Part shown: piece by piece, positions 730-34,490 of the stretch
How positions within the stretch are numbered: position 1 is the stretch's first letter
Layout of the letters: the number at the start of each line of letters is the position of its first letter
Source: an uncultured Thermoflexus sp.
Lineage (GTDB): Bacteria; Chloroflexota; Anaerolineae; Aggregatilineales; Aggregatilineaceae
DNA: 41,848 nucleotides
Direction of reading: 5' to 3'
NCBI GenBank assembly: GCA_964626105.1
Contig: CAZVCM010000001.1
Location: 1 to 41,848, forward strand
The notes under the pieces: model-generated
Seen by the model: only the letters and a program-made list of their open reading frames with translations
Databases searched by the model: none
What the model was told of the DNA's origin: nothing
Translations under genes and position numbers: made by a program

Positions 730-789
730 GCACGTAAACCTTCATTTTGAATTCGATTCGTGCGCCCTGGTTGGGAAGGCAGCTTCTCC

Positions 790-3480
790 ATGAGCGACCC
801 CTCTGTTGCCCCACACGACGCGCCTTTGCGCGATCCTGACAACCTGCCGGTTCGTGCCCCGGACCTGATGCTGGGCCGTGACGCCGATATCGCGGCGGTG
901 CATCTCGCCCTCAAAGCGAACCAGCCGATCTTGCTCTATGGCGCGCCCGGCAGCGGCAAATCATCGCTGGCGGCGGCAGTCGCTGCCGAGCGGACTGGCT
1001 CGGATGGCGGCGTGCTGTGGCTGGACCTGGCTGAGGACTCACTGCGCTCGTTGCTGGTGCGCGTGGCGCGCGCCTATGGCGTGGCGTTGCGACCCGACAG
1101 CGCGCAGGACGATCAGACCGCGACCGTGCGCGAGTTGATCCGCGCGCATCGCCCGCTGATTGTGCTGGATGGGGTCGTGAACCTGCCCGCCGCACGCGCG
1201 TTTGTGGACGCCTGCTGCGCGGATTTGCCGGTGATTCTGACGCACGCGCATCGCGGCCAGGGGCCGTGGGAAAGCTACCCCATCGAGCCGCTGAACCCCG
1301 ACGACAGCGAGGCGTTGCTGATCCTGACATCTGGCCCGGAAGTTGACGCCGATGTGAGCGAGTTCAACCGTCTGGCGAATGTTACCGGCGGCTATCCATT
1401 GGCGCTCGCCATAGCGGGCCACGCGCTCGCCGCGTCCGGGTTGTCGCCGGGTGAGTTCCGTGATCGCTTGCCAGAGATGCCGCGCGGCGCAGTGAACCGC
1501 ATGCTGGCGGTGATCATGGGCGCATATCGCTTGCTGCCGTCTGCGCTGCAAGGCACACTATTCCTGTTGGGAACGTCGTTCGGCGCCGGAGTGAGCGAGG
1601 CGCTGCTGGCCGAAGTCGCTGAGGCGCCCGTGGAGACGCTCCGCCCAGCGCTACGCCAGTTGGTCCGGCGCGGCTTCGCGTCGTCGTACACGGTCTATGG
1701 CGAGCCATACTACAAGGCGCATGCGCTGGTACGGCACTTCGCCAAGGCGTTCTTGCGCGGCAAAGGGCAACTCGATTCGCTGCGCGCCCGGCATCTATCC
1801 GGCTTGCTGAGCTATGTCAAGCAGCAGACGCGCGCCAACGAACGGGCGAACCATGACCGGCTCGCGGCGGAGTTCGGCGCGATGCTGGCGGCGGCGCGCT
1901 ATGCGGCGCGGCACAACCGCACGGATCAGCTTGAAGAACTGGTGTTGCGACTTGACCCGTCCGGTGATGATGATTTCGCGGCGCGGCGCGGCTTCCAGAC
2001 CGAATTAAAATGGATGTGGCATCTACTTGATGAGCCGGCTGCGGCGAGCGTGCCGCTGCTGGCGTGGGCGCATGAGCCGGTCGAGGAAGATGTGCCGGAG
2101 CCTGCTCTTGCGGCGTATGCGCCTCGCGAGGAAGCGCCAGTTGCGGAAGCGCCAGCCCAGGAAGAAGCGCCGCCTGTGGACGCCGAGGCGCCTGTTGAAG
2201 AAACGCCTGCCGCGCCGGAGCCAGAACCGATCTCTGCCGAGCAGGATACGCTACCCGCCGGGCTGGACTATTCGACTGATCTGGAACCGCTGGACGAGGC
2301 CGACGCCGCGATCGAGGACCTGACTACCGCGCTTGAGCAGGCCAGCGAGCCGATTGACGAGCCGCTTGACGAGACGTTTGACGAACCCGTTGAACTGGAT
2401 GAAGCGCCGGAGCCAGATCTGGCTGAGCCGGTTGCCGAGGCGAGCGTCCCGCCGGACAGCGCCCCCACGCCGCCCTCAATGCCTGAAGAGACGCCCGCCG
2501 AGCCTGCGCCGCTCTCTCGCGCGGACGCGGCGCGGATGCGGCACATGGCGCAGACCGCCGCCGAGGCGCACGACACCGAGCACGCCATCGCCTATTACGC
2601 CCAGGCGCTGGAGACGTATCAGGCGAACAATGACGTGAGCGACGAGCTGGCAGCGTTGGAAGCGCTCGCCGCGCTGAGCCTGGAACGCTCCGACTATGAG
2701 AACGTGCTCAATTATGTCGATCGCGGCATGTTGCTCGCCGAACAACTCGACGACCCGCAGCGCGAGGGCAAGCTGCTGATGCTGCTTGGCGACTTGCAGG
2801 CAGAGCTTGGCCGCACCGAGGGGGCAGAGGTTGCGTTCCAAGAGGCGATTCGCGCGCTGCGCCCCAGCGAAGCGTGGCTGGAGATCGGCCAGACGCTCGA
2901 CCGGCTCGGCGCGCTGTATATGGACACCGGGCGCCCGCAAGACGCGATCGCGGTGCTAGAGCAGGCCGTGCCGATCTTTGAGCGGGTGCAGCGTGGCGAT
3001 CTGCTGGCCGAGGTGCTGGACAAGCTTGGTGTGGCGCAGGCGGAACTGCTCGATTGGACCGCCGCGCGCCGGACTTACCGCCGCGCGGTAGCGGTGGCGC
3101 GAGCATCGGGCGACCAGCGGCAGTTCTTCGAAGTGCTGTCGCGCATGGGCAGCGTGCAGGAAGAAAGCGGTGACTATATGGGCGCGCAGTCGGCATACCG
3201 GCACGCGTTGCACGTCGCCTTCGAACTGAACGATCAAGAGGCAATCGGCGAGAGCTTGCTTGCGCTGGGTCGCATGTTGATGAATGACACGCCGCAGCTC
3301 AACCGCGTGGTGCAACTGCTGGAAGAGGCGGCTGAGCGCCTGCCGGACAACGTCGAAGCGCGCCGTCTGCTGACCCGCGCCAAGACCCGCCAGGAACGCC
3401 TCACTAACGCGGGCGTGACGTTGATGCTGCCAGAGACTGATGTCCGCGCCTACGCCTCGGCGTCGATGGACGAGAGCTAG
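790..3480 (+). CDS. NB-ARC/STAND P-loop ATPase with a long acidic low-complexity linker and C-terminal TPR repeats
   Basis: Walker A LLYGAPGSGKSSLA, Walker B LIVLDGV and the NB-ARC GxP-like motif GGYPLALAIAG are present. An E/P/A/D-rich segment of about 170 aa follows. The C-terminal third carries repeated TPR-like A..Y..AL....D / LG..Y...G....A units. The ORF opens at GTG 760. ATG 790 (MSDPSV) has a GGGAAGG Shine-Dalgarno-like word upstream. Confidence 0.8.
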   Translation: MSDPSVAPHDAPLRDPDNLPVRAPDLMLGRDADIAAVHLALKANQPILLYGAPGSGKSSLAAAVAAERTGSDGGVLWLDLAEDSLRSLLVRVARAYGVALRPDSAQDDQTATVRELIRAHRPLIVLDGVVNLPAARAFVDACCADLPVILTHAHRGQGPWESYPIEPLNPDDSEALLILTSGPEVDADVSEFNRLANVTGGYPLALAIAGHALAASGLSPGEFRDRLPEMPRGAVNRMLAVIMGAYRLLPSALQGTLFLLGTSFGAGVSEALLAEVAEAPVETLRPALRQLVRRGFASSYTVYGEPYYKAHALVRHFAKAFLRGKGQLDSLRARHLSGLLSYVKQQTRANERANHDRLAAEFGAMLAAARYAARHNRTDQLEELVLRLDPSGDDDFAARRGFQTELKWMWHLLDEPAAASVPLLAWAHEPVEEDVPEPALAAYAPREEAPVAEAPAQEEAPPVDAEAPVEETPAAPEPEPISAEQDTLPAGLDYSTDLEPLDEADAAIEDLTTALEQASEPIDEPLDETFDEPVELDEAPEPDLAEPVAEASVPPDSAPTPPSMPEETPAEPAPLSRADAARMRHMAQTAAEAHDTEHAIAYYAQALETYQANNDVSDELAALEALAALSLERSDYENVLNYVDRGMLLAEQLDDPQREGKLLMLLGDLQAELGRTEGAEVAFQEAIRALRPSEAWLEIGQTLDRLGALYMDTGRPQDAIAVLEQAVPIFERVQRGDLLAEVLDKLGVAQAELLDWTAARRTYRRAVAVARASGDQRQFFEVLSRMGSVQEESGDYMGAQSAYRHALHVAFELNDQEAIGESLLALGRMLMNDTPQLNRVVQLLEEAAERLPDNVEARRLLTRAKTRQERLTNAGVTLMLPETDVRAYASASMDES

Positions 3481-3667: not shown

Positions 3668-4822
3668 TCAATAGCGCGGCACCGACGCATCGACCTCGCG
3701 TGACCACGCGTCAATCCCACCCGCCAGATTGATCAGGTTGTCGTAGCCTGCCTCGCGCAGCGCCGCGATCAGGTTCGCGCTGCGCACGCCGGTGTGACAG
3801 AACACTACGACCGGTTGATCGCGCGGGATCTCTTGCCAGCGGGCGTTGATCTCGCTCATGGGGATATTCCGCGCGCCGTCCAGGCGGCTGATCTGAAGCT
3901 CGAATGGCTCGCGCACGTCCAGCAGGATGAGCGGCTCGCCCGCGTCCAGCCGCGCTTTGATCTGGTGCGGCGTCTGTTCGGCGGGTATGGGATCGCCGGA
4001 TACCCCGCAGAAGGCGTCGTAATCAATCAGCGCGGTGACGGTCGGGTTGTCGCCACACGCCAGGCAGCTTGCGCGCTTCGGCAGTGTGATCGTATTGAAG
4101 GTCATGTCGAGCGCGTCGTAGAGCAGCAGCCGCCCGCTGAGGACGTCCCCCGCGCCGAGGATAAGCTTGAGCGCTTCGGTCGCTTGCAGCGTGCCGATCG
4201 TGCCGGGCAGCACGCCGAGCACGCCCGCTTCCGCGCAGGACGGGACGCTGTTGGGCGGGGGTGGCTCCGGCAGCAGGCAGCGATAGCACGGCCCATCCGC
4301 CAGCCCGAAGACGCTGACCTGCCCCTCGAAGCGGAAGACGCTGCCATAGACCAGCGGCTTGCCGAGCAGGACGCACGCGTCGTTGAGCAGATAGCGCGCC
4401 GGGAAGTTATCCGTCCCATCGACGACCAGATCGTAGTCGCGGATGATGTTCAGCGCGTTGTGCCGTGTCAGGCGCGTGTGGTGCAGCTCGATGCGCACGT
4501 GCGGGTTCAGATCGCGCAGGCGACGCGCCGCCGACTCAACCTTCGGCATACCGAGCGTGCTTACGCCGTGAATCACTTGCCGCTGAAGGTTGCTCGCGTC
4601 CACCACATCGTGATCGACAAGGCCGAGCGTTCCCACCCCCGCCGCTGCCAGATAAAGCGCGCTGGCGCTGCCCAACCCGCCCGCGCCCGCAACCAGCACG
4701 CGCGCCTGTTTGAGAAGGCGCTGACCCTCGGCGCCCACGTGCGGCAAGATCAGGTGTCGGGCGTAACGCTGCTGCTCGTCGGGCGAAAGTTCTGGGGCAG
4801 GGTGCGGCGTGGTCATCGACAT
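3668..4822 (-). CDS. moeB: MoeB/ThiF-family adenylyltransferase fused to a C-terminal rhodanese domain (MoeZ/MoeBR type sulfur-carrier activating enzyme)
   Basis: The N-terminus reads YARHLILPHVGAEGQRLLKQARVLVAGAGGLGSASALYLAAAGVG..LVDHDVVDASNLQRQ. CxxC pairs CYRC and CLAC are present. The C-terminal rhodanese has the active-site loop FCHTGVRS. The start may be the third codon (ATG 4816), which is 6 nt after a GAGGA word. Confidence 0.85.
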   Translation of the reverse strand: MSMTTPHPAPELSPDEQQRYARHLILPHVGAEGQRLLKQARVLVAGAGGLGSASALYLAAAGVGTLGLVDHDVVDASNLQRQVIHGVSTLGMPKVESAARRLRDLNPHVRIELHHTRLTRHNALNIIRDYDLVVDGTDNFPARYLLNDACVLLGKPLVYGSVFRFEGQVSVFGLADGPCYRCLLPEPPPPNSVPSCAEAGVLGVLPGTIGTLQATEALKLILGAGDVLSGRLLLYDALDMTFNTITLPKRASCLACGDNPTVTALIDYDAFCGVSGDPIPAEQTPHQIKARLDAGEPLILLDVREPFELQISRLDGARNIPMSEINARWQEIPRDQPVVVFCHTGVRSANLIAALREAGYDNLINLAGGIDAWSREVDASVPRY

Positions 4823-5017
4823 TCCTCAGTTATGTATTCAGAGTGAGATCTGCGCCTAACAATACCGTCTGGCGCGCCGCGCTGCCAGGGTAGTCTGCGC
4901 GCAACCTGGCGCGCCTGGGATACGTACAGATTTTGAGAGTGCGTTACAATCGAGATCGTTGGGGGCATGTGGCTGCGTCACCGGCGCGGCCAGCGGGGCG
5001 AGGTAAAGGGTAAACGC

Positions 5018-5800
5018 ATGTTTCGACAGAGTCATCGCGGCACGATCGTCTGGCTGTTGATCGTCGGGCTGGCGCTCGCGCTCACGCTGATCGCCGGGAG
5101 CGTCCCCACGTTGGTGGGCGCCGCGTTGCTGGCGGCGTATCTGCTGTTGGTGGTGGCGATCGCGCGGAACGTGGATGTCGAGACGTTGATCGAGGCACTG
5201 CCCGCCCGTCGCGAGCCGGAAGTCGAGCCATCCGAGGTGGCGCGCGAGGCGATGGCCCGCGCCCGTACGCACCCGCGCTATGACGCCCTGATCCGCTTAA
5301 TGGACATTGGCCTGATCGTGGACGAGCCGCGCCCCGACGGCCTGTCGCTGCGGCGCGGGCGGTTTATCTCGTTGGACGACGACGGGCTGCGGCCCTTTGC
5401 GATTGTGAACGTGCCGGAGCCGCTCGCCAACCGCGTGGGGCGCGTGCGCTTTGAACTGCGCGACGAGAGTGGCGAGCCGCAGTACGTCTACGAGGCGGAC
5501 AAGTGGCTGCAGCCGGGCGAAAACGCGATCCTGCCGGATTACCGGCTGCCGATCCGCCGCAACAAGCAGGGTGACTTGCAGCCTGGCGCGTGGAGCGTGC
5601 ATTTCGAGATCGACAGCGGGATGTTAGGCGTGCACGGCTTCAGCCTGACGCCGTCGCTGGCGATGCGGCGACGCCAGATGGCCGCCGATGGCGAGCTGCG
5701 CGAGCGCGTCTGGCGCGGCGCCGACGAGGAAGACACATCCCTGCCACTGAGCCTGGAAGAACTGCTGCGCGCGCAAAGCCGCCAGCAGCATAAAGGCTAG
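5018..5800 (+). CDS. Hypothetical membrane-anchored protein, paralog A (ends in -HKG)
   Basis: The ORF opens at 4967. ATG 5018 (MFRQSH) follows GAGGTAAAGGG. Two N-terminal hydrophobic helices precede a mostly beta-looking soluble domain. It shows clear similarity to the next gene. No family was recognised. Confidence 0.55.
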   Translation: MFRQSHRGTIVWLLIVGLALALTLIAGSVPTLVGAALLAAYLLLVVAIARNVDVETLIEALPARREPEVEPSEVAREAMARARTHPRYDALIRLMDIGLIVDEPRPDGLSLRRGRFISLDDDGLRPFAIVNVPEPLANRVGRVRFELRDESGEPQYVYEADKWLQPGENAILPDYRLPIRRNKQGDLQPGAWSVHFEIDSGMLGVHGFSLTPSLAMRRRQMAADGELRERVWRGADEEDTSLPLSLEELLRAQSRQQHKG

Positions 5801-5820
5801 CGGGGCAAGCGAGGCGGTCT

Positions 5821-6492
5821 ATGGTCCTCGTGGACGATCTGTTCCTGCTGATTTTCGTTTTATTCGTGCTGTTCGCGCTATATGCATTTTTCAGCCAGGC
5901 GAGAACCTCGACGAGAGCAGGCACGCGCGGTCGCCGCGCAGCGCGCCGCAAGATCGAGCCAACCGATGCCGCCTGGGAAGCGATGGCGCGCGCCGGATAC
6001 GAGCCGAGCAGCGAGTACGTGCAGGTGGTCGATATCGGCCTGCTGGCGTACCGGCAGACCAACGAGCCGAAGCTGGTGCGCTCGGGCGGTGTGCTGATGG
6101 ACACACGCTATGTCCGCCCGTTTGCGGACCTGGTGCTGCCCTATGCCGCTAGCGGCGATGTCCGCTTCGAGTTGATCGATCACGAGGGGCGGCTGCGCTA
6201 TGCGGACGAGGCCCAGTACGATTTCCACAGCGGGCGAAACACCGTTCTGCCGGGCACGTGGCTGCCACTGGAAGGCAAGGCGATCGTGCCTGAGGACTGG
6301 ATGCTGCGCGTTCTGGCTGCCGGGACGCTGCTCGCGGCGCATCGCTTTGGCTGGCATCCGGTCGGTGGCGGGACGATTCAGCAGTATGTCGCCAGCGACG
6401 GCGAGCTGTCCGACGCGCTGCAGCAGGCGCTCAACGCTCGCCAGCGCGAGGCCGTGAGCCTGTCGGATCTGCTGTCGGATCAGGAAGAATAG
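5821..6492 (+). CDS. Hypothetical membrane-anchored protein, paralog B
   Basis: 223 aa. It has an N-terminal hydrophobic helix LFLLIFVLFVLFALYAFF. It shares with 5018-5800 the blocks (M/V)DIGL(I/L), RPFA, VRFEL.D..G, DGEL and (L/V)SL.(E/D)LL. The gap to the upstream gene is 20 nt. Confidence 0.55.
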   Translation: MVLVDDLFLLIFVLFVLFALYAFFSQARTSTRAGTRGRRAARRKIEPTDAAWEAMARAGYEPSSEYVQVVDIGLLAYRQTNEPKLVRSGGVLMDTRYVRPFADLVLPYAASGDVRFELIDHEGRLRYADEAQYDFHSGRNTVLPGTWLPLEGKAIVPEDWMLRVLAAGTLLAAHRFGWHPVGGGTIQQYVASDGELSDALQQALNARQREAVSLSDLLSDQEE

Positions 6493-6560
6493 CCGGATCT
6501 ACTCAGCGCGCCGGTTACGGGCGCGGCGCGCGATAGGAAGGATTTAGAGGAAAGGGACGT

Positions 6561-7043
6561 ATGGCAAAGGAAGCCTGGTGGGGCACGCGCAATCATGTTT
6601 CAAACCGCCTGCGCCTGGAAGTGGAGATGATGCGCGCCACTTTTGCGGACACGTTCCGCCTGACCGTGCCCCGGCGCGATCTGCTCTACTGGGTAGGCGA
6701 TGTGGAGATCAACCTGGCGGGCATTCCTCAGCGAGTGCACACGCTGAAAATCGTCTATCCTGAGGATTATCCCAATCGCCCGGCGGAAGCGTACGTGCTC
6801 AAGCCGAACGTCTATAGCGAGAAGCACCAGTACGAGGACGGGCAGTTGTGCTTGTTTAACCCGAAAGATGGCGTGACGTATGGTTGGAACCCCAGCACCT
6901 CGACCGCGGTCACAGTGGCTGGCTGGGCGATACAGTGGCTTTACGCGTATTACACCTGGCGCGCGACCAGCGTTTGGCCGGGCGTGGAAGAACGGATGCC
7001 GCCGGTGAAGGACACGCGGCGCAGGAGGAGAATGCGATGGTGA
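6561..7043 (+). CDS. UBC-fold E2-like (ubiquitin-conjugating-enzyme-like) protein, candidate catalytic Cys97
   Basis: 160 aa laid out as in the UBC fold. There is an N-terminal helix NRLRLEVEMMRATF and a beta meander. HTLKIVYPEDYPNRPAEAYVL corresponds to the UBC F.L.I.FP.DYPF.PP.V.F block. HQYEDGQLCLF corresponds to HPN...G.ICL, with the Cys codon TGC at 6849-6851. YGWNPSTSTAVTVAGWAIQWL corresponds to W.P..T...V. An RBS-like GAGGAAAGGG precedes ATG 6561. Confidence 0.75.
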   Translation: MAKEAWWGTRNHVSNRLRLEVEMMRATFADTFRLTVPRRDLLYWVGDVEINLAGIPQRVHTLKIVYPEDYPNRPAEAYVLKPNVYSEKHQYEDGQLCLFNPKDGVTYGWNPSTSTAVTVAGWAIQWLYAYYTWRATSVWPGVEERMPPVKDTRRRRRMRW

Positions 7044-8383
7044 TGGACGAGCAGAAGAGCGACTCGGGGCGTGAGGGCCCGCGCGATATGCCGCGCATCA
7101 TCGTCGCCCAACGGGTGATGGACAAGATTCGGCGAGGCGCGCTGCTCTATCCGGAGCCGGAGACCGGCGAAGCGCTGATCGGGTTTGTCGTGCCCACGCA
7201 GGGCCACCCCGAGCCGGACATCTACATCCTTGATACGATCGGGCCGGGTGAAGATGCCGTCCGCGAGTGGGGGATGTTCGAGCAGGGGGACGACTGGCAG
7301 GGCGATGTCTTCGACTGGCTGTTTTACAACTGGGAAGCGTTTCGCGAGCTGCGCCGTCCGTCGTATGGCAACGCGGTTGCCGCGAAGTGGGACTTTCCGC
7401 TGGCGCACGTGGGCGACTGGCATAAGCAGCCCGGCGATATGATCGCCCCGTCCGGGGGCGATGCCGCGACCGCGCGCCGCATGATCGAGGACCGCGAAAC
7501 GCCGATTGAGCACCTTGTCGCGCCGATTGTGACGCTGTATCCGCTGGCGCCTGAGCCACCCGCGCCGGAAGCGGAAGGCGCAGAAGCGGCGGCGGATGTC
7601 TCCGCGTCAGAGGAAGCGGGGCGCATGGCGGCGCACACTGGCTCTGCTCCGCCGGAGGCCGCGCCGGACGCCGTGCCAACTGATGCGGAGGAAGCCGCCG
7701 AAACCCTCCCCAGCGCAAGCGCGGAGCCCGCTCAAACTGAGGACGCGCCTGCGGAGCCGGAGTTGCCTGCCGAGCCGCCGCTGGCGCCGAACGCCATCAT
7801 TCTGCGCGATCACGAGTCGGGCTGGACGATCCGCGTCGATTTCTGGTATATGAGCAAGCGCCGTAAGAGCTTCGTGCCGGTCGTGCCCAAGGTGTGGGCC
7901 GATGACCGGCTGCCGGGGCTCCCGGCGATTAGCTGGCACCTGGCGCAACCAAGCCGCTTTGAGCAAGAGCTTCGGATGCTGACGCGCGAGGGATACAGCG
8001 TCGATATCGTGCGCTGGGATGCGGATGGCCGCCCGCCTTATGAGGTCTGCTTTGCGGTGTACCGCCCCGGCGCGACGCACGTTCTGCTGCTGGTAACCTC
8101 GGCGGATTATCCGTACGAGATGCCGGCGGTGCGCGTATCCCCGCTGGTCAGCGTGGCCGAAGATGAAGACGTGTTCGAGAAGCTGTATCAGGCGTCGCGC
8201 CCGCTGATGCTCACGCAGCTTCCGTCGTGGGAATGGGATACCAAGCGCACGCTGTTGGAACTGGCGCGGCATGTCGAGGAGACACACAAATCGTCGGACG
8301 AACGCGAGCCTTCGGCGCCTGTGAACGACAGCGCAGCCGCTTCGAGCGCGCCGGACGTAGAAGCGAAGGACAGCGTTTCATGA
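7037..8383 (+). CDS. JAB/JAMM (MPN) domain protein with acidic linker and a C-terminal Cys-less E2/UEV-like domain
   Basis: The N-terminal domain has ETGEALIG (JAMM Glu region) and WHKQPGDMIAPSGGD, aligned to the H-x-H-x7-S-x2-D JAMM motif with Gln in place of the second His. An A/E/P-rich linker spans about 7514-7790. The C-terminal domain (RFEQELRMLT ... HVLLLVTSADYPYEMPAVRVSP) mirrors the E2 layout. ATG 7037 lies 7 nt after GGAGGAG and overlaps the E2 stop. The ORF-track start at 6884 is an upstream read-through. Confidence 0.7.
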   Translation: MVMDEQKSDSGREGPRDMPRIIVAQRVMDKIRRGALLYPEPETGEALIGFVVPTQGHPEPDIYILDTIGPGEDAVREWGMFEQGDDWQGDVFDWLFYNWEAFRELRRPSYGNAVAAKWDFPLAHVGDWHKQPGDMIAPSGGDAATARRMIEDRETPIEHLVAPIVTLYPLAPEPPAPEAEGAEAAADVSASEEAGRMAAHTGSAPPEAAPDAVPTDAEEAAETLPSASAEPAQTEDAPAEPELPAEPPLAPNAIILRDHESGWTIRVDFWYMSKRRKSFVPVVPKVWADDRLPGLPAISWHLAQPSRFEQELRMLTREGYSVDIVRWDADGRPPYEVCFAVYRPGATHVLLLVTSADYPYEMPAVRVSPLVSVAEDEDVFEKLYQASRPLMLTQLPSWEWDTKRTLLELARHVEETHKSSDEREPSAPVNDSAAASSAPDVEAKDSVS

Positions 8384-9327
8384 GTTGGGATCGTGTCGAG
8401 CGGTTGTTGGGTGAAGGAACGCTGGCTTACCTTCGAGAGCGGACGGTTGGGATTATCGGGCTGGGCTCGGGTGGCAGCTTCGCCGCGGTCGCGCTGGCGA
8501 TGAGCGGCGTAGGCCGCTTCATTCTGATCGACGATGACGTGCTGGAGCCGGCGAACGTGGTCCGCCACGCCGCCGACCGCCGCTACGTCGGGCAGACGAA
8601 AGCCGCTGCCGTCGCTGATTTGATCTACCAGCGGAATCCGGACGCTTTCGTCGAGTCCATTCACGGGCGGATCGAGGACCATCTCGAGAAGCTGGCCGAG
8701 ATGGATCTGGTCGTGGTGGGCGTGGACGCCGAAAGGCCAAAGTATGCGATCAATCAGGCGTGCCTCGCGGCGGGACGCATCGCGGTATATGCGGGCGTGT
8801 ATGAACGCGGCGAAGGCGGAGATGTCTGCGTCATTCGCCCCGACGACGGGCCGTGCTACGCCTGCTGGGCAGAGCATCTGCGCGAAGGGCTGGCCGAGCC
8901 GGTTGGGCCGGAAGCCGAGCTAGATTATGGTATGATCGGCCCGGATGGCACGCTGGCAGCCGAGCCAGGGCTGTGGATTCACGTGGTGCGGGTGGCAGGC
9001 GCGCAGGCGGATCTGGCGCTCAACGCGCTGCTGGAAGACACCGAAGCGCACGTCGAAATGCCCGGTAACACAGTGATCCTCGCCAATCGCCAGCTTGAGA
9101 TCTACGAGGGGCGCATCACGCCGCCCTATGGCGCGGAGTGGGTATCCGTGCCGTGCAACCCGGATTGCCTGGTGTGCGGCTGCCGCCAGCCACGCGCCGC
9201 CGCGAACACGGTGTCGCTGGATGACCTGGCCGCGTTGGGCAATATATCGCTAGAGGATGAGGCGCTGTCGAACGGCCCGCCCGCCGACCGCTTGAAAGAA
9301 GAAGGAAACGCGCAAGATGACCGATGA
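8380..9327 (+). CDS. ThiF/MoeB/HesA-family E1-like adenylyltransferase (no rhodanese domain)
   Basis: Motifs seen are VGIIGLGSGGSFAAVALAMSGVGRFILIDDDVLEPANVVRH (Rossmann GxGxxG plus D.D..N..R), TKAAA, VVVGVD, and zinc-type CxxC pairs CYAC and CLVC. ATG 8380 overlaps the upstream stop as ATGA (8380-8383). The ORF-track start at 8227 lies inside the JAB gene. Confidence 0.85.
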   Translation: MSWDRVERLLGEGTLAYLRERTVGIIGLGSGGSFAAVALAMSGVGRFILIDDDVLEPANVVRHAADRRYVGQTKAAAVADLIYQRNPDAFVESIHGRIEDHLEKLAEMDLVVVGVDAERPKYAINQACLAAGRIAVYAGVYERGEGGDVCVIRPDDGPCYACWAEHLREGLAEPVGPEAELDYGMIGPDGTLAAEPGLWIHVVRVAGAQADLALNALLEDTEAHVEMPGNTVILANRQLEIYEGRITPPYGAEWVSVPCNPDCLVCGCRQPRAAANTVSLDDLAALGNISLEDEALSNGPPADRLKEEGNAQDDR

Positions 9328-9682
9328 GCAGACTCCCATGAACGACCAGCCGCCGGTCGAAGAACCGGCTGCGCCCACACCGCCTGAGCAGACGCCACCT
9401 GAGCAGAGTTTGCCGCCGCAAGCGCCGCCAGATGAGCCGCCGAAAGTGGTTGATGAGACGCCCGTCACGCCGGAAACCCCCGCGACGGATGACGATCTTG
9501 GCTCGCGCCTGGAGCGGTTGGGCGGCGAGCCTGCGCCCGATATCACGCCGGAAGAGTTCGCGCGGTTGCAGCAGGCCGGCCAGATCCACATCGACCCACG
9601 CGGGCGCGTGCGCGCTACGCGCCGCGACGAAACCGACGCGGGGATCTCGCTCCGCAAGCGGCGCGCGTGGTACGTTGCGTGA
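9317..9682 (+). CDS. Hypothetical proline/glutamate-rich, probably disordered protein
   Basis: 121 aa. Third-position G/C looks high, consistent with real coding. The start overlaps the E1 stop by 11 nt. The N-terminal 60 aa are P/E/T-rich, followed by an internal RLERLGG (Gly-Gly codons 9521-9526). No family was recognised. Confidence 0.45.
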   Translation: MTDEQTPMNDQPPVEEPAAPTPPEQTPPEQSLPPQAPPDEPPKVVDETPVTPETPATDDDLGSRLERLGGEPAPDITPEEFARLQQAGQIHIDPRGRVRATRRDETDAGISLRKRRAWYVA

Positions 9683-10353
9683 GCGGTCGAGACACGCTCG
9701 CAGCGTCGATTACGCTCGACGATGTGCGCGCCGCGCTGTCGCTGGAAGGCTTTGACGCGCTCGAAGCGCAGCGGCGGATGGCGCCCCAGCCGCGCGTGCT
9801 GCGCCGCCCGTCGAACCGACCCGGCCAGCCGCACCAGGGCAGCGTGATTGTGCTATTGACTTCTGGCGAGCAGGGCCTCAGCTTTCCGCTTATCCGCCGC
9901 GCTGAAAACGCCGCCGACGTACACAGCGGGCAGATCAGCCTGCCGGGCGGCGCGCGAGAGCCAGGCGAAACCCCGGTGCAGACCGCTTTACGCGAAGCGG
10001 CGGAAGAACTCGGCGAGGGGCCGGAGATCGAAGTCCTGGGCGAGCTGATGCCACTGTATATTCCGCCGAGCGATTTTGAAGTGGCGGCGTTTGTCGGCTG
10101 GCTGCCCGAGGTGCGGCGCTGGCAACCACAGCCCGATGAGGTGGTCGAGGTGCTGGACTGCCCGATCACGTGGTTGTTCGAGGCGCCGCGCAAGCACGTT
10201 GAGGATTGGGCGTTCGAGGGCTACAGCCTGCGTGTGCCCTGGTACGACGTGTGCGGGCACCGCGTCTGGGGCGCGACCGCGATCCTGCTCAGTGAGTTAG
10301 AACACCGCCTGCGGCACGCGCTGAACGGGCGGCTATCGGATGTATTAGAATGA
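9667..10353 (+). CDS. Nudix hydrolase, CoA pyrophosphatase (NudL/Nudt7-like) type
   Basis: The Nudix box GGAREPGETPVQTALREAAEELG is preceded by VLLTSG....FPLIRRAENAADVHSGQISLPGG, which resembles the CoA-pyrophosphatase signature. Start candidates are GTG 9667 and GTG 9679; the latter overlaps the upstream stop as GTGA. Confidence 0.8.
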   Translation: MVRCVSGRDTLAASITLDDVRAALSLEGFDALEAQRRMAPQPRVLRRPSNRPGQPHQGSVIVLLTSGEQGLSFPLIRRAENAADVHSGQISLPGGAREPGETPVQTALREAAEELGEGPEIEVLGELMPLYIPPSDFEVAAFVGWLPEVRRWQPQPDEVVEVLDCPITWLFEAPRKHVEDWAFEGYSLRVPWYDVCGHRVWGATAILLSELEHRLRHALNGRLSDVLE

Positions 10354-10376: not shown

Positions 10377-10405
10377 TTGACCGGCCAGGGGCCATACGCT
10401 ATACT
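10377..10405 (+). promoter_or_regulatory. Sigma-70-like promoter candidate for the rpmH-rnpA operon
   Basis: TTGACC (10377-10382), 17-nt spacer, TATACT (10400-10405), about 115 nt upstream of the rpmH ATG. Confidence 0.5.
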
Positions 10406-10519
10406 TGCCCTCTCGATCGCAAGGCGCAGGCCCGCCGCGCCGGTGCTGAGGGCCGCGCGAATTGCATGAGTTGTCGAACCCGCGCCCTCGTGCGCGTTTT
10501 TTGAAAGAGGACACTACCA

Positions 10520-11083: not shown

Positions 11084-11289
11084 AAGCTCTCGGCTTGTTC
11101 GCGATCCGGGTTTACCAGCGCACATTCTCGCGGATGCTGCCACCAAGCTGCCGGTTTGATCCAAGTTGCTCGCACTATACGTACCCGGCGATCGTGAAAC
11201 ACGGCCTGCTGAAGGGTGGCTGGCTTGGGCTGCGGCGGATTGGTCGCTGTCACCCGCTCAGCCCCGGCGGCTATGATCCGGTTCCGTAG
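11080..11289 (+). CDS. yidD: Membrane protein insertion efficiency factor YidD
   Basis: 69 aa. YQRTFS...[19 protein letters not shown]...[12 protein letters not shown]...GGYDPVP is present. The start overlaps the rnpA stop (ATGA). Confidence 0.9.
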
Positions 11290-11308
11290 GACAGACCGTC
11301 CCGCCAAA

Positions 11309-12505
11309 ATGAGTGTCAGGGAAACAGCATTGACTATCTTCCCCTTGAAAAACAAGCGCCCCCGCCTGCGGCTGGGGATATTGCTGATTCTGGCGGTTGC
11401 GCTGGCAGCGTGTGGTGGCGTGGCCGGTGGCAGTTGGGCCGGACTTAGCACGAACCAGAGCGGCGAGAAGCTCTTCGTCGCCTATGACCGGAGCGTGGTC
11501 GCGCTGAACGCGGCCAGCGGCGCGGTGCTGTGGGAGTATCCCGACGAGGACTCGCGCAACGCTCAGTTCTACGCCCAGCCGGTCGCGGACAATGGTAGCG
11601 TCTATGTGGGTGACTATGATGGCCGCCTGCACGCGATCGACTCCGAAACGGGCACCAGCCAGTGGGTATATGAGCCGGAGCGCGAAACGCTCGTCGGGCC
11701 GCTGTCTCCCGAAGCGCCAGATCGCGTGATCAGCGGCGTGGCGCTCAGCCCGGACCTCGCGTTCTTTGGCCTGGGCAGCCGCAATGTGGTGGCGGTCGCG
11801 CGGGAAGACGCGTCTGAGGTGTGGACGTTCGAGACCGATCACGGGGTGTGGGGCACGCCGCTCTATCTCGACGCCGAAAGCAGCCCGGACGGCACGCCTC
11901 TGCTGTTGGTGTCCTCGCTGGACCACAACCTCTATGCGCTCGATCCGGAGTCCGGCAATGAGTATTGGAGCCTGAACCTGGGCGGCGCGGCGTCGGGCAA
12001 TATGCTGTATGACGCCGAAAACCAGCGCGTCTATCTCGGGACGTTTGGCAAGGGCGTGGTCGCGGTGGATCTGGAATCCGCCTCAATCGCGGCTCGCTTC
12101 CAGACGGAAGAATGGGTCTGGAGCCATCCGGCGCTGGATGGCAACCGGCTGTATATTGGGGACCTCGGCGGCAACCTGTACGCTGTGGAAATTGGCGAGG
12201 GCACGCTGACGCAGGCGTGGAAGGTCACCCCGACGCCGGAAGCGATTCGCGGCACGCCGCTGGTGATCGATAATCTGGTGATTGTCGGCGCAGAAGATGG
12301 GCGCATCTTCGCCCGGATTGCGGAAAGCGGCGCTGAGGTGTGGTCCACAAACGTCGAGGCGAAGGTCCTCACCGAGCTGATCAGCGTGTCCGACGAAGAT
12401 GACGATACGACGCATATCGTCGCCGGGACCGATAAAAAAGAGCGCTTGATCGTCGCTCTGAACGTCACGAACGGCGAGGGAGCGTGGTCGTATGGTAACG
12501 ATTAA
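11309..12505 (+). CDS. PQQ-like beta-propeller repeat lipoprotein (BamB/YfgL-like fold)
   Basis: ATG 11309 gives a signal peptide with lipobox LAVALAACGG. Propeller motifs recur: GSVYVGDYDGRLHAIDSETGTSQW, SSLDHNLYALDPESGNEYW, RLYIGDLGGNLYAV and VGAEDGRIFARIAESGAEVW. The ORF-track start at 11216 overlaps yidD. Confidence 0.8.
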   Translation: MSVRETALTIFPLKNKRPRLRLGILLILAVALAACGGVAGGSWAGLSTNQSGEKLFVAYDRSVVALNAASGAVLWEYPDEDSRNAQFYAQPVADNGSVYVGDYDGRLHAIDSETGTSQWVYEPERETLVGPLSPEAPDRVISGVALSPDLAFFGLGSRNVVAVAREDASEVWTFETDHGVWGTPLYLDAESSPDGTPLLLVSSLDHNLYALDPESGNEYWSLNLGGAASGNMLYDAENQRVYLGTFGKGVVAVDLESASIAARFQTEEWVWSHPALDGNRLYIGDLGGNLYAVEIGEGTLTQAWKVTPTPEAIRGTPLVIDNLVIVGAEDGRIFARIAESGAEVWSTNVEAKVLTELISVSDEDDDTTHIVAGTDKKERLIVALNVTNGEGAWSYGND

Positions 12506-23098: not shown

Positions 23099-23596
23099 AA
23101 AGCGAGCGTGTCCTTCAGGCGTGCGGAGTTCCGCGCGGGTGCTGCGCACAACGGTGGCCTGTCGCGCGCAAGACTAGTGTGTGCGCTAATGGTAGCGTAG
23201 AACTAGGGCGCGCGCCGCATTTTGACCAGGTGAAATCGCGCCCAGATCGTGTTGGTAGCACAAAGTTTCTTTATGTCATACAATGGGGATGCTGGCCGCT
23301 TCATTCACCTCTTCGCAGCCGTGTTTCTTGGCCAGCAAGTAACAAAAGTTTACGCGCATTTTGTTTTGTTTTTACGCGTGTGTGGTAAAAGCTCGCAGAG
23401 GCATGGCAATTGAATCCCTGCATTGGCCGTTGACAACTCGAAAGGAGGGCGTACTGACTGAGGACTAACCTTTGGTCAACGGAAGGTTGCGAGTAGCCGT
23501 GTCGTTTTTGCGCGAGAGTCGTGGGGAGTCTTATTCGCGTGATGTTTGAGCATCCCCTCGCTGCGCACTGTACCCACTCTCTTGAAGGAGACAGAA

Positions 23597-24949
23597 ATGA
23601 AGAGACTAGTATTTCTTGCGGTCATGCTGGCTCTGGTCGTGACGCTGGCGGTGCCTATGGGCGCTACCAAGGCGCAGGACCCGGTTCCGATCGATGTCTG
23701 GATCGCGTTCAGCGACTATCGCCTGGACTGGACCAAGGAAGTTGCCGAAGAGTTCAACGCCTTGTTCCCCGAATACCAGGTGAACATCGTTGGCGGCATG
23801 AGCTACGAGGAGATGTTTGCCCAGGTCTCGGTGGCAGCGGAGCAGAATGCGCTGCCCGGCGTGATCCACTTTAATGAGGCGAGCACGCAGGACGCCCGCG
23901 ACAGCGGGAACTTCAAGCCGATCGCTGCGTTGTTGGGCGACCGCACTGAGGTCAACGGGCTGCCGGTTGGTTTCGATGACATCATCGAACCGACGACCGC
24001 TTACTACACCCTTGACGGCAATTGGACCAGTTTCCCGTGGAACACGTCCTCGGCGATCTGGTTTTCGAACATGAACTTCCTCAACGCGGCGGGCTTCGAC
24101 ACGCCGCCTACAACCTGGGCGGAAGTTGACGAATACTGCGCCGCCATTATGGCGCTGGAGGACGCGCCCCAGTACTGCTGGACTTTCCCCAACTACGGCT
24201 GGTTCTTCGAGCAGTGGCTGGCGCAGCAAGACGCGCTGTTCGTCAACAACGACAATGGCCGCTCTGACCGTGCGACCGAGGTCGCCTTCAACAGCGACGC
24301 CGGGGTGGCGATCTTTAACTGGTGGGACGATCAGTACGACAAGGGCTACCTGTACTACAGCGGTGCGCAGGGTGGCGATTCCTGGGGCACTATCGACCAG
24401 GCGTACCAGACCCAGAGCGTCGCGATGGCGGCCTACAGCAGTTCGGATACCACGCTCTACACCAACATGGGCCTGGAGAACGGCTTCACGACCGTCGCGT
24501 CCTTCCTGCCCTACAACCAGGAAACCGGTTGGACCGGTAACCTGATCGGCGGTGGGTCGCTGTGGCTAGTCGACGGCCTCGCCCCAGAGGTGGAAGAGGG
24601 CGCGCTCGCGTTCATGGTCTACCTCAGCCAGCCGGAGAACGATATGGCCTGGCACAAGCTGACGGGCTACATCGCCATCCGCGAGAGCTCGAACCAGATG
24701 CTCGAGGAAGAGGGCTGGTTCGAAGAGTGGCCCAACCAGACGGTGGCGATGCAGCAGTTGGCGCAGAGCACCGTCACGCCGGCGACCAGTGGTGCGTTGG
24801 TGGGCGGCTTCCCGGCCATCCGTAACGCTGTGACGGGCGCGACTGACCGGCTGTTGTTGACCGACGAGGATCCGGCGGCGCTGCTCGATCAGGCCGCGTC
24901 CGAAGCGAACGTGATCATCGAGGAGTACAATCTGCTCAGCGCCCCGTAA
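23597..24949 (+). CDS. ABC transporter extracellular solute-binding protein (carbohydrate, family 1)
   Basis: ATG 23597 follows AAGGAG. The signal peptide is MKRLVFLAVMLALVVTLAVPMGA. It is followed by two MalF/MalG-type permease genes. Confidence 0.8.
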   Translation: MKRLVFLAVMLALVVTLAVPMGATKAQDPVPIDVWIAFSDYRLDWTKEVAEEFNALFPEYQVNIVGGMSYEEMFAQVSVAAEQNALPGVIHFNEASTQDARDSGNFKPIAALLGDRTEVNGLPVGFDDIIEPTTAYYTLDGNWTSFPWNTSSAIWFSNMNFLNAAGFDTPPTTWAEVDEYCAAIMALEDAPQYCWTFPNYGWFFEQWLAQQDALFVNNDNGRSDRATEVAFNSDAGVAIFNWWDDQYDKGYLYYSGAQGGDSWGTIDQAYQTQSVAMAAYSSSDTTLYTNMGLENGFTTVASFLPYNQETGWTGNLIGGGSLWLVDGLAPEVEEGALAFMVYLSQPENDMAWHKLTGYIAIRESSNQMLEEEGWFEEWPNQTVAMQQLAQSTVTPATSGALVGGFPAIRNAVTGATDRLLLTDEDPAALLDQAASEANVIIEEYNLLSAP

Positions 24950-25035
24950 TCGGTGGTGGTACACCTCGGAGTATACAGGTGGGGGCAGCCCTTGCCCCCA
25001 CCTCTGCTATCTCACCGGAACTTGAGGGATTTGTT

Positions 25036-26238
25036 ATGATTATCGCTCCACTACTTTTGGTCCTGGCTGGTGCCATCGTGGGGGCCGTCGTGGTCGGCTA
25101 CATCTTCTCACGCGCAGCCCACCGCGGCCTGTTAGGCGCCGTGATCGGAGCGGGCGCGGGCGCGCTCGGCTCGCTGATCTTCATGGTCCCGCTCGACTAC
25201 TGCACGTTTGAGGCCGAGCGCAAGACGATCGATGCGATCTTCGGCGGGGTGCTGGTCGGGCTGGGCGTGCTGTTGGTGGTGGCGCCGGTCGCATGGCTGG
25301 GCTGGAAGCTGCTGCGTCGTGAGAGCCTGATCTCGGCCACGGCCCAACCCACACAGGGCACCTTTCGCCACTGGTGGATCGCACTTCCGTTTCTCGCTCC
25401 AACACTTACCATTCTCCTCGTGTTTCTGTATTATCCCTCGCTCGAAACGCTGCGGCTCTCGACTATGCTGTCGCGGCTGGGGGCGCGGCGCGAAGCGTTT
25501 GTCTGCGTGGACAACTATACGCGGCTGGTTGAAGGCAGCGCCTATCTCGACGTGGTGGCGCGCACCGTCTATATGTCCTTCTTCATCGTAGTGCTGAGCA
25601 TGGCGATCGGGCTGCTAATCGCGACAATGGCCTACCTGCCGGTCAAGGGCGCGTCGATCTACCGCACGCTGCTGGTCTGGCCCTATGCCATCTCTCCAGC
25701 GGTGGCCGGTATTATCTTTCTGCTGATGTTCAACCCGACGGGCGGCATCATCAACTACCTGCTTTACGACTGGTTTGGCGTGCGGCCGGGGTGGCTCAAT
25801 GACCCTAACCTGGCCCCGTGGACGATCATTATTTCGAGCGTCTGGAAGTCTATCGGGTTCAATATTCTGTTCTACATCGCGGCGTTGCAAAATGTGCCGG
25901 TCGATCTAATCGAGGCGGGAGCGATTGACGGCGCGGGCTTGCTGAGGCGATTCTGGCATATCGTTTGGCCGCTGCTTTCGCCGACAACTTTCTTTTTGCT
26001 TATCACCAACTTGACCTACGCCTTCTTTGACACTTTCGCTACCATCGACTACTTGACGCCGGGCGGCGGGCCGCTGCAATCCACCACGACCATGATGTAC
26101 CAGGTCATCCGCGTGGGCGTGAATAACAACGACCTCGGCAAAGCGGCGGCACAGTCGGTGGTGTTGTTCCTGATGGTGATTGGCATCACAATAATGTCGT
26201 TCCGCACGGGCGGGCGCCAGGTCACCTACGGAGCGTAA
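25036..26238 (+). CDS. Carbohydrate ABC transporter permease (MalF/UgpA-like) with an N-terminal transmembrane extension
   Basis: The EAA-like loop reads IEAGAIDGAGLLRRFWHIVWPLL. ATG 25036 lies 6 nt after GAGGGA; the ORF opens at GTG 24979. Confidence 0.8.
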   Translation: MIIAPLLLVLAGAIVGAVVVGYIFSRAAHRGLLGAVIGAGAGALGSLIFMVPLDYCTFEAERKTIDAIFGGVLVGLGVLLVVAPVAWLGWKLLRRESLISATAQPTQGTFRHWWIALPFLAPTLTILLVFLYYPSLETLRLSTMLSRLGARREAFVCVDNYTRLVEGSAYLDVVARTVYMSFFIVVLSMAIGLLIATMAYLPVKGASIYRTLLVWPYAISPAVAGIIFLLMFNPTGGIINYLLYDWFGVRPGWLNDPNLAPWTIIISSVWKSIGFNILFYIAALQNVPVDLIEAGAIDGAGLLRRFWHIVWPLLSPTTFFLLITNLTYAFFDTFATIDYLTPGGGPLQSTTTMMYQVIRVGVNNNDLGKAAAQSVVLFLMVIGITIMSFRTGGRQVTYGA

Positions 26239-26241
26239 GCC

Positions 26242-27123: not shown

Positions 27124-27138
27124 CCCGCCACGTTTGAC

Positions 27139-27185
27139 GGGGCGGTCTCTATTCGTTCAGTAAGAGACCGCCCCTTGTGCATTTT
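27139..27185 (+). terminator. Strong intrinsic terminator after the sugar ABC operon
   Basis: GGGGCGGTCTCT (27139-27150) pairs perfectly with AGAGACCGCCCC (27163-27174) across a 12-nt loop. TTGTGCATTTT follows. Confidence 0.7.
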
Positions 27186-27282
27186 ACACAAGACGGTCAT
27201 TCGGTTTCCTCTGCTGAATTCGGTATTGTTGCCGCCACTGGGGCTCGGCGCGCGGCCTGCGCTAGTGTGTAAGTTCCTCGGT

Positions 27283-27312
27283 TTGACAAAAGTTGATTGC
27301 AGTTGCTACGAT
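27283..27312 (+). promoter_or_regulatory. Promoter candidate for the Liv-type ABC operon
   Basis: TTGACA (27283-27288), 18-nt spacer, TACGAT (27307-27312). This implies a leader of about 275 nt before ATG 27593. Confidence 0.35.
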
Positions 27313-27592
27313 TTGCCATGATTGGTCCGTTGGGGCTCAGATAGCTGAGTCGCTTAGACGTACTTACCCGCGCGAGGCCGTTCCAGCACCCGGCTTTGGC
27401 GCGGATTATGCCGATCGAGGCAACAGGACGTGAGAAGGAGGGAAACAGGACACTTGGAAAGGATGGACCGCTAGGACAGAACGCCTAACTCCCCGTACGG
27501 TTGCTGGCGTGGTGCCAGGAACCAGCAGCAAAGCACAGGCTTTCGATCCGGCAATCCGATGAGACAGGTCTAACACAAGGAGAGAGCACGTC

Positions 27593-28819: not shown

Positions 28820-29004
28820 TTCGCTAGAATAGGCGGCAGGCGCCTGCGGGCGTCTTTCGCGCGCAAGGTGTGCCGCCAGCGTCAGGCGAGCTTTTCGGCG
28901 CTGGCGGCACATTCACAACAATGTTTTGAGACAACTGCGGTGGCTCGATAAACTGCCCCTCGCTTGTGGCGCTGAGCCTGTGCACGATCGGGACGGAGAA
29001 GAGA

Positions 29005-30549: not shown

Positions 30550-30551
30550 CC

Positions 30552-33745: not shown

Positions 33746-33765
33746 CGCGGGCGAAGGACGCACGT

Positions 33766-34479: not shown

Positions 34480-34490
34480 GGGGCGCGGGC

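Follow-up and report, generated by a model that had tools for sequence, protein, structure and literature searches.

The 41,848-nucleotide window analysed here is contig CAZVCM010000001.1 (positions 1 to 41,848, forward strand) of assembly GCA_964626105.1, from an uncultured Thermoflexus sp. of the Aggregatilineaceae. It carries what looks like a resident cassette of the ubiquitination-like conjugation type: seven plus-strand genes at 4967-10353, with predicted E2, JAB and E1 enzymes followed directly by a small, mostly disordered partner protein. The same internal order in at least 336 genomes, set between different outer flanks, strongly supports an operon that is resident and vertically inherited rather than a defence island. 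A far-reaching reading, at distinctly less than an even chance, is a housekeeping, vertically inherited tagging pathway of the Anaerolineae and a sister lineage. In this pathway a largely disordered modifier that is not a beta-grasp protein, with either a ...KRRAW[YG] tail or an internal RLERLGG tail, would be handled by an E1 lacking a catalytic Cys, a eukaryote-like E2 and a JAMM-RWD editing enzyme, with membrane beta-sandwich proteins as targets or adaptors.

The list of open reading frames (ORFs) places the E2 gene at 6561-7043 (160 amino acids, aa), the JAB gene at 7037-8383 (448 aa counted from ATG 7037) and the E1 gene at 8380-9327 (315 aa), reproducing the coordinates given in an earlier sequence-only reading of the window. 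The E2 stop codon, TGA, is at 7041-7043. The JAB frame contains ATG 7037, GTG 7040 and ATG 7043, and the two genes therefore overlap by 7 nucleotides (nt), as first described, or by 1 nt, depending on the JAB start. JAB and E1 are joined by ATGA at 8380-8383, again as described. The sequence-only reading ended the unit here. Its three genes are real, but the unit is larger. The E1 gene overlaps the gene for the small partner protein (9317-9682, 121 aa) by 11 nt (9317-9327), showing that the coupling runs on past E1, and the small-protein gene in turn overlaps a Nudix hydrolase gene (9667-10353) by 16 nt (9667-9682). Upstream are the genes for a membrane-anchored beta-sandwich protein, TMA (4967-5800), and its paralog TMB (5821-6492), which are 20 nt apart, with the end of TMB 68 nt ahead of the E2 start. 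The G+C content (GC) is 63-68%, uniform over the cassette and its surroundings, as the earlier reading had stated.

Profile and motif evidence indicates that 6561-7043 encodes a UBC-type E2, and an unusually eukaryote-like one. The motifs on which the UBC fold was originally proposed, YPEDYPNRPAEAYV, HQYEDGQLCLF with Cys97, and WNPSTSTAVTV, are all present, giving a YPxxYPxRP flap, a histidine (His89) eight residues ahead of Cys97 and a W109-N-P motif. Across 82 E2 orthologs there is essentially no variation at His89, at Cys97 or in the stretch KHQ.EDGQLCLFNPKDG..YGWNP, and E2 identity across the class is 59-95%. The window protein matches the PADLOC E2 models of cyclic oligonucleotide-based antiphage signalling (CBASS) systems with E=2.4e-15 over residues 17-151, and Pfam UQ_con weakly (E=0.09). 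PF26395 (E2-CBASS) is present in the precomputed annotation of E2 orthologs and absent from the local Pfam scan results for the window E2. A phmmer search with the window E2 matches eukaryotic UBCs directly (2FO3, 3.7e-5), while the best solved match of the family profile is human UBE2L3 (1.6e-5), with 8HSB_B/9KKB, the Serratia E2 of E2-CBASS, at 2e-4. The PADLOC, UBE2L3 and PF26395 matches bear out the UBC assignment.

One locus of an intermediate lineage (L097, 1884-3974) has four tandem E2-like paralogs of 162-174 aa just upstream of JAB, on a contig that ends ahead of E1. PF26395 matches three of them, one weakly. The arrangement suggests E2 diversification, perhaps for target choice.

On the modelled structure, 7037-8383 encodes a JAMM/MPN protein with predicted peptidase activity, fused to a Cys-less and presumably catalytically dead RWD/UEV-like E2 fold. 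An MPN domain (aa 20-170) is followed by a disordered Ala/Pro/Glu linker (aa 181-245) and the E2/RWD-like domain (aa 253-422). The JAMM motif, E42...D127-W-H129...S139-x-x-D142, is invariant in the alignment of the main family, the family to which the window belongs, and JAB identity across the class is 34-71%. The window JAB protein has no Pfam match. The JAB/JAMM assignment of the sequence-only reading is upheld by the PADLOC JAB models (7.5e-5), by Prok-JAB matches to 8 of 20 JAB orthologs, and by Foldseek with an AlphaFold 2 (AF2) model, which finds Rpn11, CSN5, BRCC36 and the Caldiarchaeum Rpn11 homolog 6FJU (about 1e-4, probability 1.0). The mean predicted local distance difference test score (pLDDT) of this model is 78.6 overall and above 90 in both domains. 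The full-length model gave only MPN matches in Foldseek. The C-terminal domain has no Pfam match in the window protein or its orthologs, but its AF2 topology (H305-317, E321-327, E336-342, E348-354, E364-369, H379-386, H406-422; pLDDT >90) fits the extra E2-like domain that had been proposed. It has a DYPYEMP flap and no catalytic Cys, and aligns with the E2 family in register but weakly (hhalign E=0.03). Neither the JAB-RWD protein nor the small protein has a curated family in Pfam or NCBIfam.

The E1 gene, 8380-9327, is predicted to encode a minimal single-domain enzyme of the MoeB/ThiF/UBA5 type with no conserved catalytic Cys. The motifs quoted in the sequence-only reading (GLGSGG, DDDVLEPANVVRH, CYAC and CLVC) are present. 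The single ThiF domain covers residues 9-223 (Pfam ThiF, 4.7e-30). PADLOC E1-E2 (Cap2) models match at 9e-29, profile searches find ThiF, UBA5, MoeB and MccB at about 1e-19, and Foldseek finds UBA5 (best), MoeB, ThiF and MccB at about 1e-12. These matches agree with the ThiF/MoeB-type adenylating enzyme without rhodanese that had been described; IAD, CYS, UFD and N-terminal peptide-clamp domains are also absent. GLGSGG, R62-H63 and D109/D116 are conserved, and the loop AGVYERGEGGD is invariant. Just four cysteines are invariant, the Zn tetrad C159, C162, C263 and C266. No Cys is conserved in the crossover region (residues 163-199), where the invariant residues are R168, D182-Y183-G184, G190-T191 and E195-P196. 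E1 identity across the class is 55-91%. A second E1-like gene, on the minus strand at 3668-4822 and divergent from the adjoining cassette, encodes a MoeZ/MoeB-type adenylyltransferase/sulfurtransferase with ThiF and rhodanese domains (NCBIfam, 8e-144).

The small partner protein and the spread of the operon

The small protein at 9317-9682 is a candidate modifier or E1 substrate. It opens with a conserved MTD. A disordered segment follows, acidic, rich in Pro and variable, about 10-110 residues long, and after it a C-terminal module. In the window the module is R64-Y119 (56 residues, nt 9506-9673), RLERLGGEPAPDITPEEFARLQQAGQIHIDPRGRVR...DAGISLRKRRAWY, with 19 invariant columns, and includes both RLERLGG (9506-9526) and SLRKRRAWY (9647-9673). 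Its identity across the class is 73-95%, and it is the best-conserved sequence of the operon. R115-Y119 (RRAWY) is invariant, and S111, L112, R113 and K114 are each at least 90% conserved. The window protein has 2 unconstrained residues after the module. In the family, 2 members end at Y119 itself, 21, 40 and 51 members have 1, 2 and 3 further residues respectively, and 5 have 4-6; these extra residues follow no consensus. A module end of this kind, with its short unconstrained tail, looks much like that of a modifier precursor. K114 was considered as an acceptor lysine and ruled out, as it is Arg in loci L032 and L036; the module can be lysine-free and is therefore not a Lys acceptor.

The family of the small protein comprises 1122 clusters. 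All of the 120 members listed are 62-111 aa long and annotated as "hypothetical", with no domain match and no fusion. Sequence searches of PDB, Pfam, NCBIfam and PADLOC found no relatives. AF2 of residues 78-105 gives a helix and a beta-hairpin (pLDDT 67-80), not a beta-grasp, and a tail of low confidence. The protein is next after E1 in all 76 loci that extend past E1. The sequence-only reading had treated it as a Pro-rich flank and the modifier as unidentified; a constant partner after E1 with the best-conserved module of the cassette is no mere flank, and it is the obvious candidate. The same reading had found no beta-grasp ubiquitin-like protein (Ubl), and this stands: window ORFs and the conserved cassette have no Ubl, ThiS or MoaD match in Pfam or NCBIfam, and none of the GG-terminated ORFs of the window is a plausible hidden Ubl.

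Species-representative genomes were searched with a JAB-RWD alignment, and the window proteins were compared by tblastn on 83 loci. We confirmed at least 336 loci in species-level genomes of Anaerolineae, Aggregatilineales, Thermoflexus, Ardenticatenia and unclassified Chloroflexota, one of them the cultured Aggregatilinea lenta. A metagenome scan gave only 6 loci. E2, JAB, E1 and the small protein are collinear in every locus whose contig reaches that far. The outer flanks vary: gyrB and EPSP synthase in A. lenta, obg in another lineage and rpmH in the window. The sequence-only reading had preferred a resident pathway to a recently acquired island, and this combination of fixed interior and changing exterior strongly supports its preference.

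An exhaustive JAB-RWD profile search returned 300 representative clusters. Among them is a sister tier of JAB-RWD proteins of about 315 aa (E 1e-21 to 1e-10), whose JAMM motif is the canonical GHSHH...S..D and which share the RWD-like domain. All sister loci that are long enough have the order beta-sandwich protein, E2, JAB-RWD, ThiF, small protein. The sister and main E2s are homologous (hhalign probability 97%). The sister contigs (L084-L088, L090-L094) are 42-51% GC and encode a soluble beta-sandwich protein and larger E2s, about 190-245 aa, that are extended at the N-terminus. One of these loci, L085, adjoins an integrase and a TraG-like gene. The six sister small proteins end in A-x-K-x-x-x-[FW]-A, followed by nothing in two (which stop exactly at FA or WA) and by DEE, GAEA, KRADE or, in L087, a longer extension in the others. 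An intermediate locus, L089, has a small protein homologous to that of the window (...IGG-TPAQP...TLGKRRTWG against LGG-EPAPD...SLRKRRAWY). It holds two copies of PQEVTLGKRRTWG, one an extra upstream copy, and this duplicated tail motif resembles a poly-modifier precursor. In all three lineages the small protein follows E1 directly and is translationally coupled to it.

The membrane paralogs had also been taken for mere flanks. They recur ahead of E2 in about 50 of 70 loci, in one to three copies, with a third often present (L001, L009 and others), and have soluble homologs in the sister family. TMA, identified from its ORF, hydropathy and conservation, probably starts at ATG 5018 (MFRQSH...) and has a hydrophobic segment at about aa 23-70 and a beta-rich domain at about aa 110-235. 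TMB, identified from its ORF and conservation, has an N-terminal transmembrane helix and then a beta-rich domain, and is 28-35% identical to TMA orthologs. Comparison of TMA with the soluble protein of about 190 aa upstream of the sister-family E2 (hhalign E=4.4e-5, common G-x-W-x-L-x-V motif) makes homology of the beta-sandwich proteins of the two families probable. A short acidic-hydrophobic motif, SL[DE][DE]L[LI], lies near the C-termini of TMA (LSLEELL, 5750-5790), TMB (VSLSDLL, 6460-6480) and E1 (VSLDDLAAL, 9210-9235). At 194-910 and 2965-3801 of L089 the encoded proteins stop right at the motif, as ISLEDLLG and ISLEDLIG, and [DE][DEQ][IL]-COOH is the C-terminal end of the sister-family E1, beta-sandwich and JAB-RWD proteins alike. 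The shared C-terminal motif suggests a common docking site, perhaps with the RWD domain as partner.

The last gene of the cassette is an accessory one. The Nudix hydrolase is CoA-pyrophosphatase-like (Pfam NUDIX, 3.8e-13; NCBIfam PRK10707, 7.5e-20, below its cut-off). It lies next to the small protein in most main-family loci, is absent or displaced in about 15 of 76, and is absent from the sister family.

Proposed pathway and alternatives

It is plausible, approaching an even chance without reaching it, that the small protein is both E1 substrate and modifier and that its C-terminal tail is the end activated. It would then stand in for a ubiquitin-like modifier, just as, for the CBASS enzyme Cap2, the tail of the CD-NTase does. 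The JAMM domain would trim the 0-3 variable residues beyond ...SLRKRRAWY and E1 would adenylate the freed carboxylate. As E1 has no catalytic Cys, the acyl group would pass straight from E1 to Cys97 of E2, which would ligate the small protein to its targets. The JAMM-RWD protein may also undo the conjugation, with its RWD-like domain as a docking module, and the membrane-anchored beta-sandwich paralogs would be the leading candidate targets or adaptors. The role of the pathway is apparently housekeeping or regulatory, not antiphage.

We favour the tail as the activated end because a single hypothesis would then account for the module being conserved throughout and for constraint ending abruptly after Y119, because the logic of the tail recurs in the sister family, and because the tail motif is duplicated in L089. 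There are precedents for such chemistry. In CBASS, a disordered C-terminus belonging to a non-Ubl protein is adenylated by Cap2, whose E1 Cys is dispensable in vitro; the Bub E1 has no catalytic Cys.

Several observations weigh against this reading. E1 adenylation sites and the S1 pockets of JAMM enzymes normally take Gly or Ala, next to which a C-terminal Trp-Tyr is bulky, and the last 0-3 residues of any protein may be unconstrained without any processing. The small protein also holds a ubiquitin-like RLERLGG|E, a more canonical site for JAMM and E1. In the JAMM motif of the main family Asp127 stands where the first Zn-binding His normally sits; Asp is a possible Zn ligand in that position. 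The sister and main small proteins have no detectable similarity (hhalign E=0.42), and the tail logic they share comes down to a short motif in six sister sequences. When E1 and the small protein were co-folded (AF2 on a fusion, using a block alignment with 7 E1 rows), the tail had pLDDT <50 and no confident docking; the C-terminal half of E1 was itself poor in this shallow alignment, and the co-fold is uninformative on docking.

The RLERLGG site supports another way of using the same protein. The JAMM enzyme would cleave after Gly70 (RLERLGG|EPAPD), the N-terminal disordered fragment would be conjugated, and the basic 49-residue C-terminal fragment would have a separate role, as in ubiquitin-ribosomal-protein fusions. 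The site is well conserved: RLERLGGEPAP is found in 114 of 119 family members, R67, G70, E71, A73 and P74 are invariant, and position 69 is G, S or A. It resembles LRLRGG, in which ubiquitin and ISG15 end. L089 keeps it as ...SIGG|TPAQP, and 4 of 6 sister small proteins have a hydrophobic-GG about 45 residues ahead of the tail. A C-terminal Gly is also what JAMM enzymes and E1s normally use (BilC; Iyer 2006). But a modifier released in this way would be conserved at only about 8 residues and would vary in length from about 10 to about 110, and neither the conservation of the C-terminal module nor the sharp boundary at Y119 would be explained. In the other 2 of the 6 sister sequences GG is GA or GI, apparently within a structured segment. 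We consider internal cleavage unlikely. We also doubt, to much the same degree, that the enzymes conjugate something else, with the small protein as regulator, adaptor or target and the activated C-terminus coming from a membrane paralog, from E1 or from a protein encoded elsewhere. The co-fold, uninformative as it is, leaves room for such a scheme, and other tails of the system are conserved too, SL[DE][DE]L near the ends of TMA, TMB and E1 and [DE][DEQ][IL]-COOH in the three sister proteins. Against it, about 20 of 70 loci lack the membrane paralogs or have none detected, whereas no locus lacks the small protein, the lysine-free modules of L032 and L036 offer no Lys acceptor there, and the coupled position directly after E1 is kept in all three lineages.

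Two further alternatives concern what the pathway is for. All bacterial E1/E2/JAB operons characterised to date are defence systems, the best profile matches of E2, E1 and JAB are PADLOC CBASS models, and a STAND NTPase-TPR gene lies 1.5 kb upstream, all of which might be expected of an antiphage system of the CBASS, Bil or Bub kind that had become fixed in the lineage. Yet CD-NTase, effector, Ubl and DUF6527 genes are all missing, no CapH/CapP or CapW regulators occur in those loci for which gene calls were read, and the STAND gene is linked only in close relatives. Defence genes are fast-evolving and patchy, whereas this operon is widespread in one class in varied housekeeping neighbourhoods, has a composition like its surroundings and is under very strong purifying selection, with E2 and the small-protein module each up to 95% identical. 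An antiphage role is thus very unlikely. The least probable of these readings is a small-molecule, peptide or sulfur pathway, whether a thiocarboxylate carrier (ThiS, MoaD or CysO with a Mec+-type JAMM) or a peptidyl-nucleotide or ribosomally synthesised and post-translationally modified peptide (RiPP) system like MccB/MccA, assisted by the MoeZ-rhodanese and Nudix proteins. JAMM enzymes and E1s do occur together in the CysO and QbsE sulfur-carrier systems, the E1 here resembles ThiF, MoeB and MccB roughly as closely as it does UBA5, and there are both a MoeZ-like ThiF-rhodanese gene at 3668-4822 on the minus strand and a coupled CoA-pyrophosphatase-like Nudix gene downstream. Such a pathway would, however, have no role for a UBC-type E2 with an invariant Cys or for an RWD domain. 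The putative carrier is not a GG-ended beta-grasp protein and its C-terminus is not Asn, the E1 lacks both a rhodanese and, with its ThiF domain starting at residue 9, an N-terminal peptide clamp, and no biosynthetic or export genes are present. The MoeZ gene is linked only in close relatives and the Nudix gene is dispensable.

Surroundings of the cassette

The sequence-only reading had pointed to the neighbouring rpmH-rnpA-yidC cluster. The proximity is real at the window and in the close relatives L005, L007 and L008, but it is not a feature of the family. The MoeZ-like gene is linked only in the close relatives L006-L009, L011 and L023. A STAND/AAA ATPase gene (760-3480, 906 aa), whose product has a long acidic Pro-rich linker and a C-terminal TPR, lies about 1.5 kb upstream of the cassette and is next to MoeZ only in the close relatives L007-L009, L011 and L023. 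With linkage confined to close relatives, rpmH-rnpA-yidC, MoeZ and the STAND gene were ruled out as parts of the system.

Between Nudix and rpmH a consensus scan found a terminator-like GC hairpin with a T run on the plus strand (10481-10496), which probably marks the 3' end of the operon. The 166-nt gap ahead of rpmH also has a promoter-like TTGACC and TATACT with a 17-nt spacer (10377-10496; a consensus match only). A gene for a 429-aa BamB/PQQ-like beta-propeller lies between yidD and yidC (11216-12505). Its longest ORF overlaps the end of yidD, and the arrangement is the same in L007 and L008. At 23500-34500 GC falls to 57-63% and AT skew reaches -0.29. The region coincides with two ABC-transporter operons, one of sugar type with a solute-binding protein and permeases and one of branched-chain amino-acid type with unusually long permeases of 527 and 787 aa, and the skew probably reflects membrane-protein codon usage. 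The other genes of the window, including ABC transporters, a GH31 glycosidase and the BamB-like propeller, are ordinary, and an Rfam scan of the window found no RNA families.

Comparison with known systems

Iyer et al. (2006) defined classes 6a-6e of such systems, where 6b is CBASS type II, 6c and 6d are Bil (types II and I) and 6e is Bub. Judged by gene content and motifs, the cassette departs from each of Bil, Bub, CBASS type II and 6a in at least one defining feature, and its nearest relatives by sequence are the CBASS enzymes. The sequence-only reading had allowed for orthologs with a canonical Ubl gene inside a Bil, Bub or 6E family; the orthologous loci have no Ubl in the conserved cassette and fall outside those definitions.

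CBASS type II and E2-CBASS are closest by profile (E2 2.4e-15, Cap2 9e-29, JAB 7.5e-5), and E2 orthologs carry PF26395. They are also alike in concept: the protein whose C-terminal tail the enzymes act on is not a ubiquitin-like one, and a JAB trims or reverses. Cap2 is an E2-linker-E1 fusion with a Cys in the crossover loop, whereas here E2 and E1 are separate with JAB between them, and there is neither an ATG7-like linker nor such a Cys. The E2 here keeps a Pro-rich flap, a His eight residues ahead of the Cys and a Trp after it, whereas the Cap2 E2 domain has no such flap, no such Trp and no HPN motif. The JAB here has an added RWD-like domain, and the cassette is resident and class-wide rather than mobile. 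In E2-CBASS the E2 binds the C-terminus of the CD-NTase covalently; none of the loci examined here has a CD-NTase. As the sequence-only reading had found for the window, CD-NTase and effector are missing, both among the window genes and among the called neighbours of the orthologous loci.

Bil systems also encode JAB, E2 and E1 together, in the order E2-JAB-E1, and the Bil JAB enzyme pre-processes the modifier. The match to BilB-BilC-BilD drawn in the sequence-only reading holds for this gene order and not for the E1. Bil has the beta-grasp BilA and a multidomain IAD-AAD-CYS E1, and lies in defence islands; the cassette has no Ubl gene, its 315-aa E1 has a single domain with no IAD, CYS or catalytic Cys, and it does not lie in such an island. 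Bub shares with the cassette an E1 without a catalytic Cys and, in type I, a JAB peptidase, and an inactive RWD-like E2-fold domain has been noted in 6e operons. It differs in its oxyester (Ser) intermediates, its Ubl-E2 or E2-E1 fusions, its beta-grasp Ubls and its BubE/DUF6527 serine protease. Here Cys97 of E2 is invariant in 82 sequences, and there is no DUF6527 or Ubl among window genes or called neighbours. Class 6a is a single E2-E1-JAB polypeptide with a metallo-beta-lactamase (MBL) gene; here there are three genes in the order E2-JAB-E1 and no MBL in the cassette. NCBIfam NF058523 matches the Rossmann part only of the E1, with 56.5 bits against a cut-off of 320.

Sulfur-carrier systems (ThiS/MoaD/CysO) have a GG-ended beta-grasp protein, an E1 with or next to a rhodanese, and no E2. 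Here the putative carrier is not a beta-grasp protein, the E1 has no rhodanese domain, the adjacent MoeZ-rhodanese gene is linked only in close relatives, and there is a UBC-type E2 with an invariant Cys. Microcin C synthesis (MccB/MccA) uses a peptide-clamp E1 and an Asn-ended precursor; here the ThiF domain starts at residue 9 and the small protein ends in ...AWY plus variable residues. Pup-PafA is an analogy of function only, a small, largely disordered tag that is not a beta-grasp protein and serves bacterial housekeeping. Its enzymes are unrelated: the ligase is glutamine-synthetase-like and links Pup through the side-chain carboxylate of its C-terminal Glu, with no E1, E2 or JAB. The enzymes themselves recall eukaryotic and Caldiarchaeum ubiquitin systems, as the best solved match of E2 is UBE2L3, the MPN domain matches Rpn11 (6FJU) and E1 matches UBA5, but ubiquitin and a RING E3 are missing, E1 lacks UFD and CYS domains, and H-Q-[YF] stands in place of the HPN motif.

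Our literature searches turned up no paper that connects an operon of this kind with Chloroflexota or Anaerolineae. Since the cultured A. lenta has the operon, the question is accessible to direct experiment. If the proposed pathway is correct, E1/E2 chemistry has been recruited to tag proteins with a non-ubiquitin modifier in normal bacterial physiology, which would bear on the origin of ubiquitin signalling and would add a class of prokaryotic protein modifier to Pup, SAMP/TtuB and the Bil and Bub Ubls. Among bacterial E1/E2/JAB systems it would be the first to serve a core cell function instead of defence against phage. The characterised bacterial operons of this kind, CBASS type II, Bil and Bub, are mobile antiphage systems, most of them with a beta-grasp Ubl. 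In contrast, the cassette described here is fixed across a bacterial class in housekeeping neighbourhoods and under strong purifying selection, and pairs what appears to be a eukaryote-like E2 not with a Ubl but with a small disordered partner.

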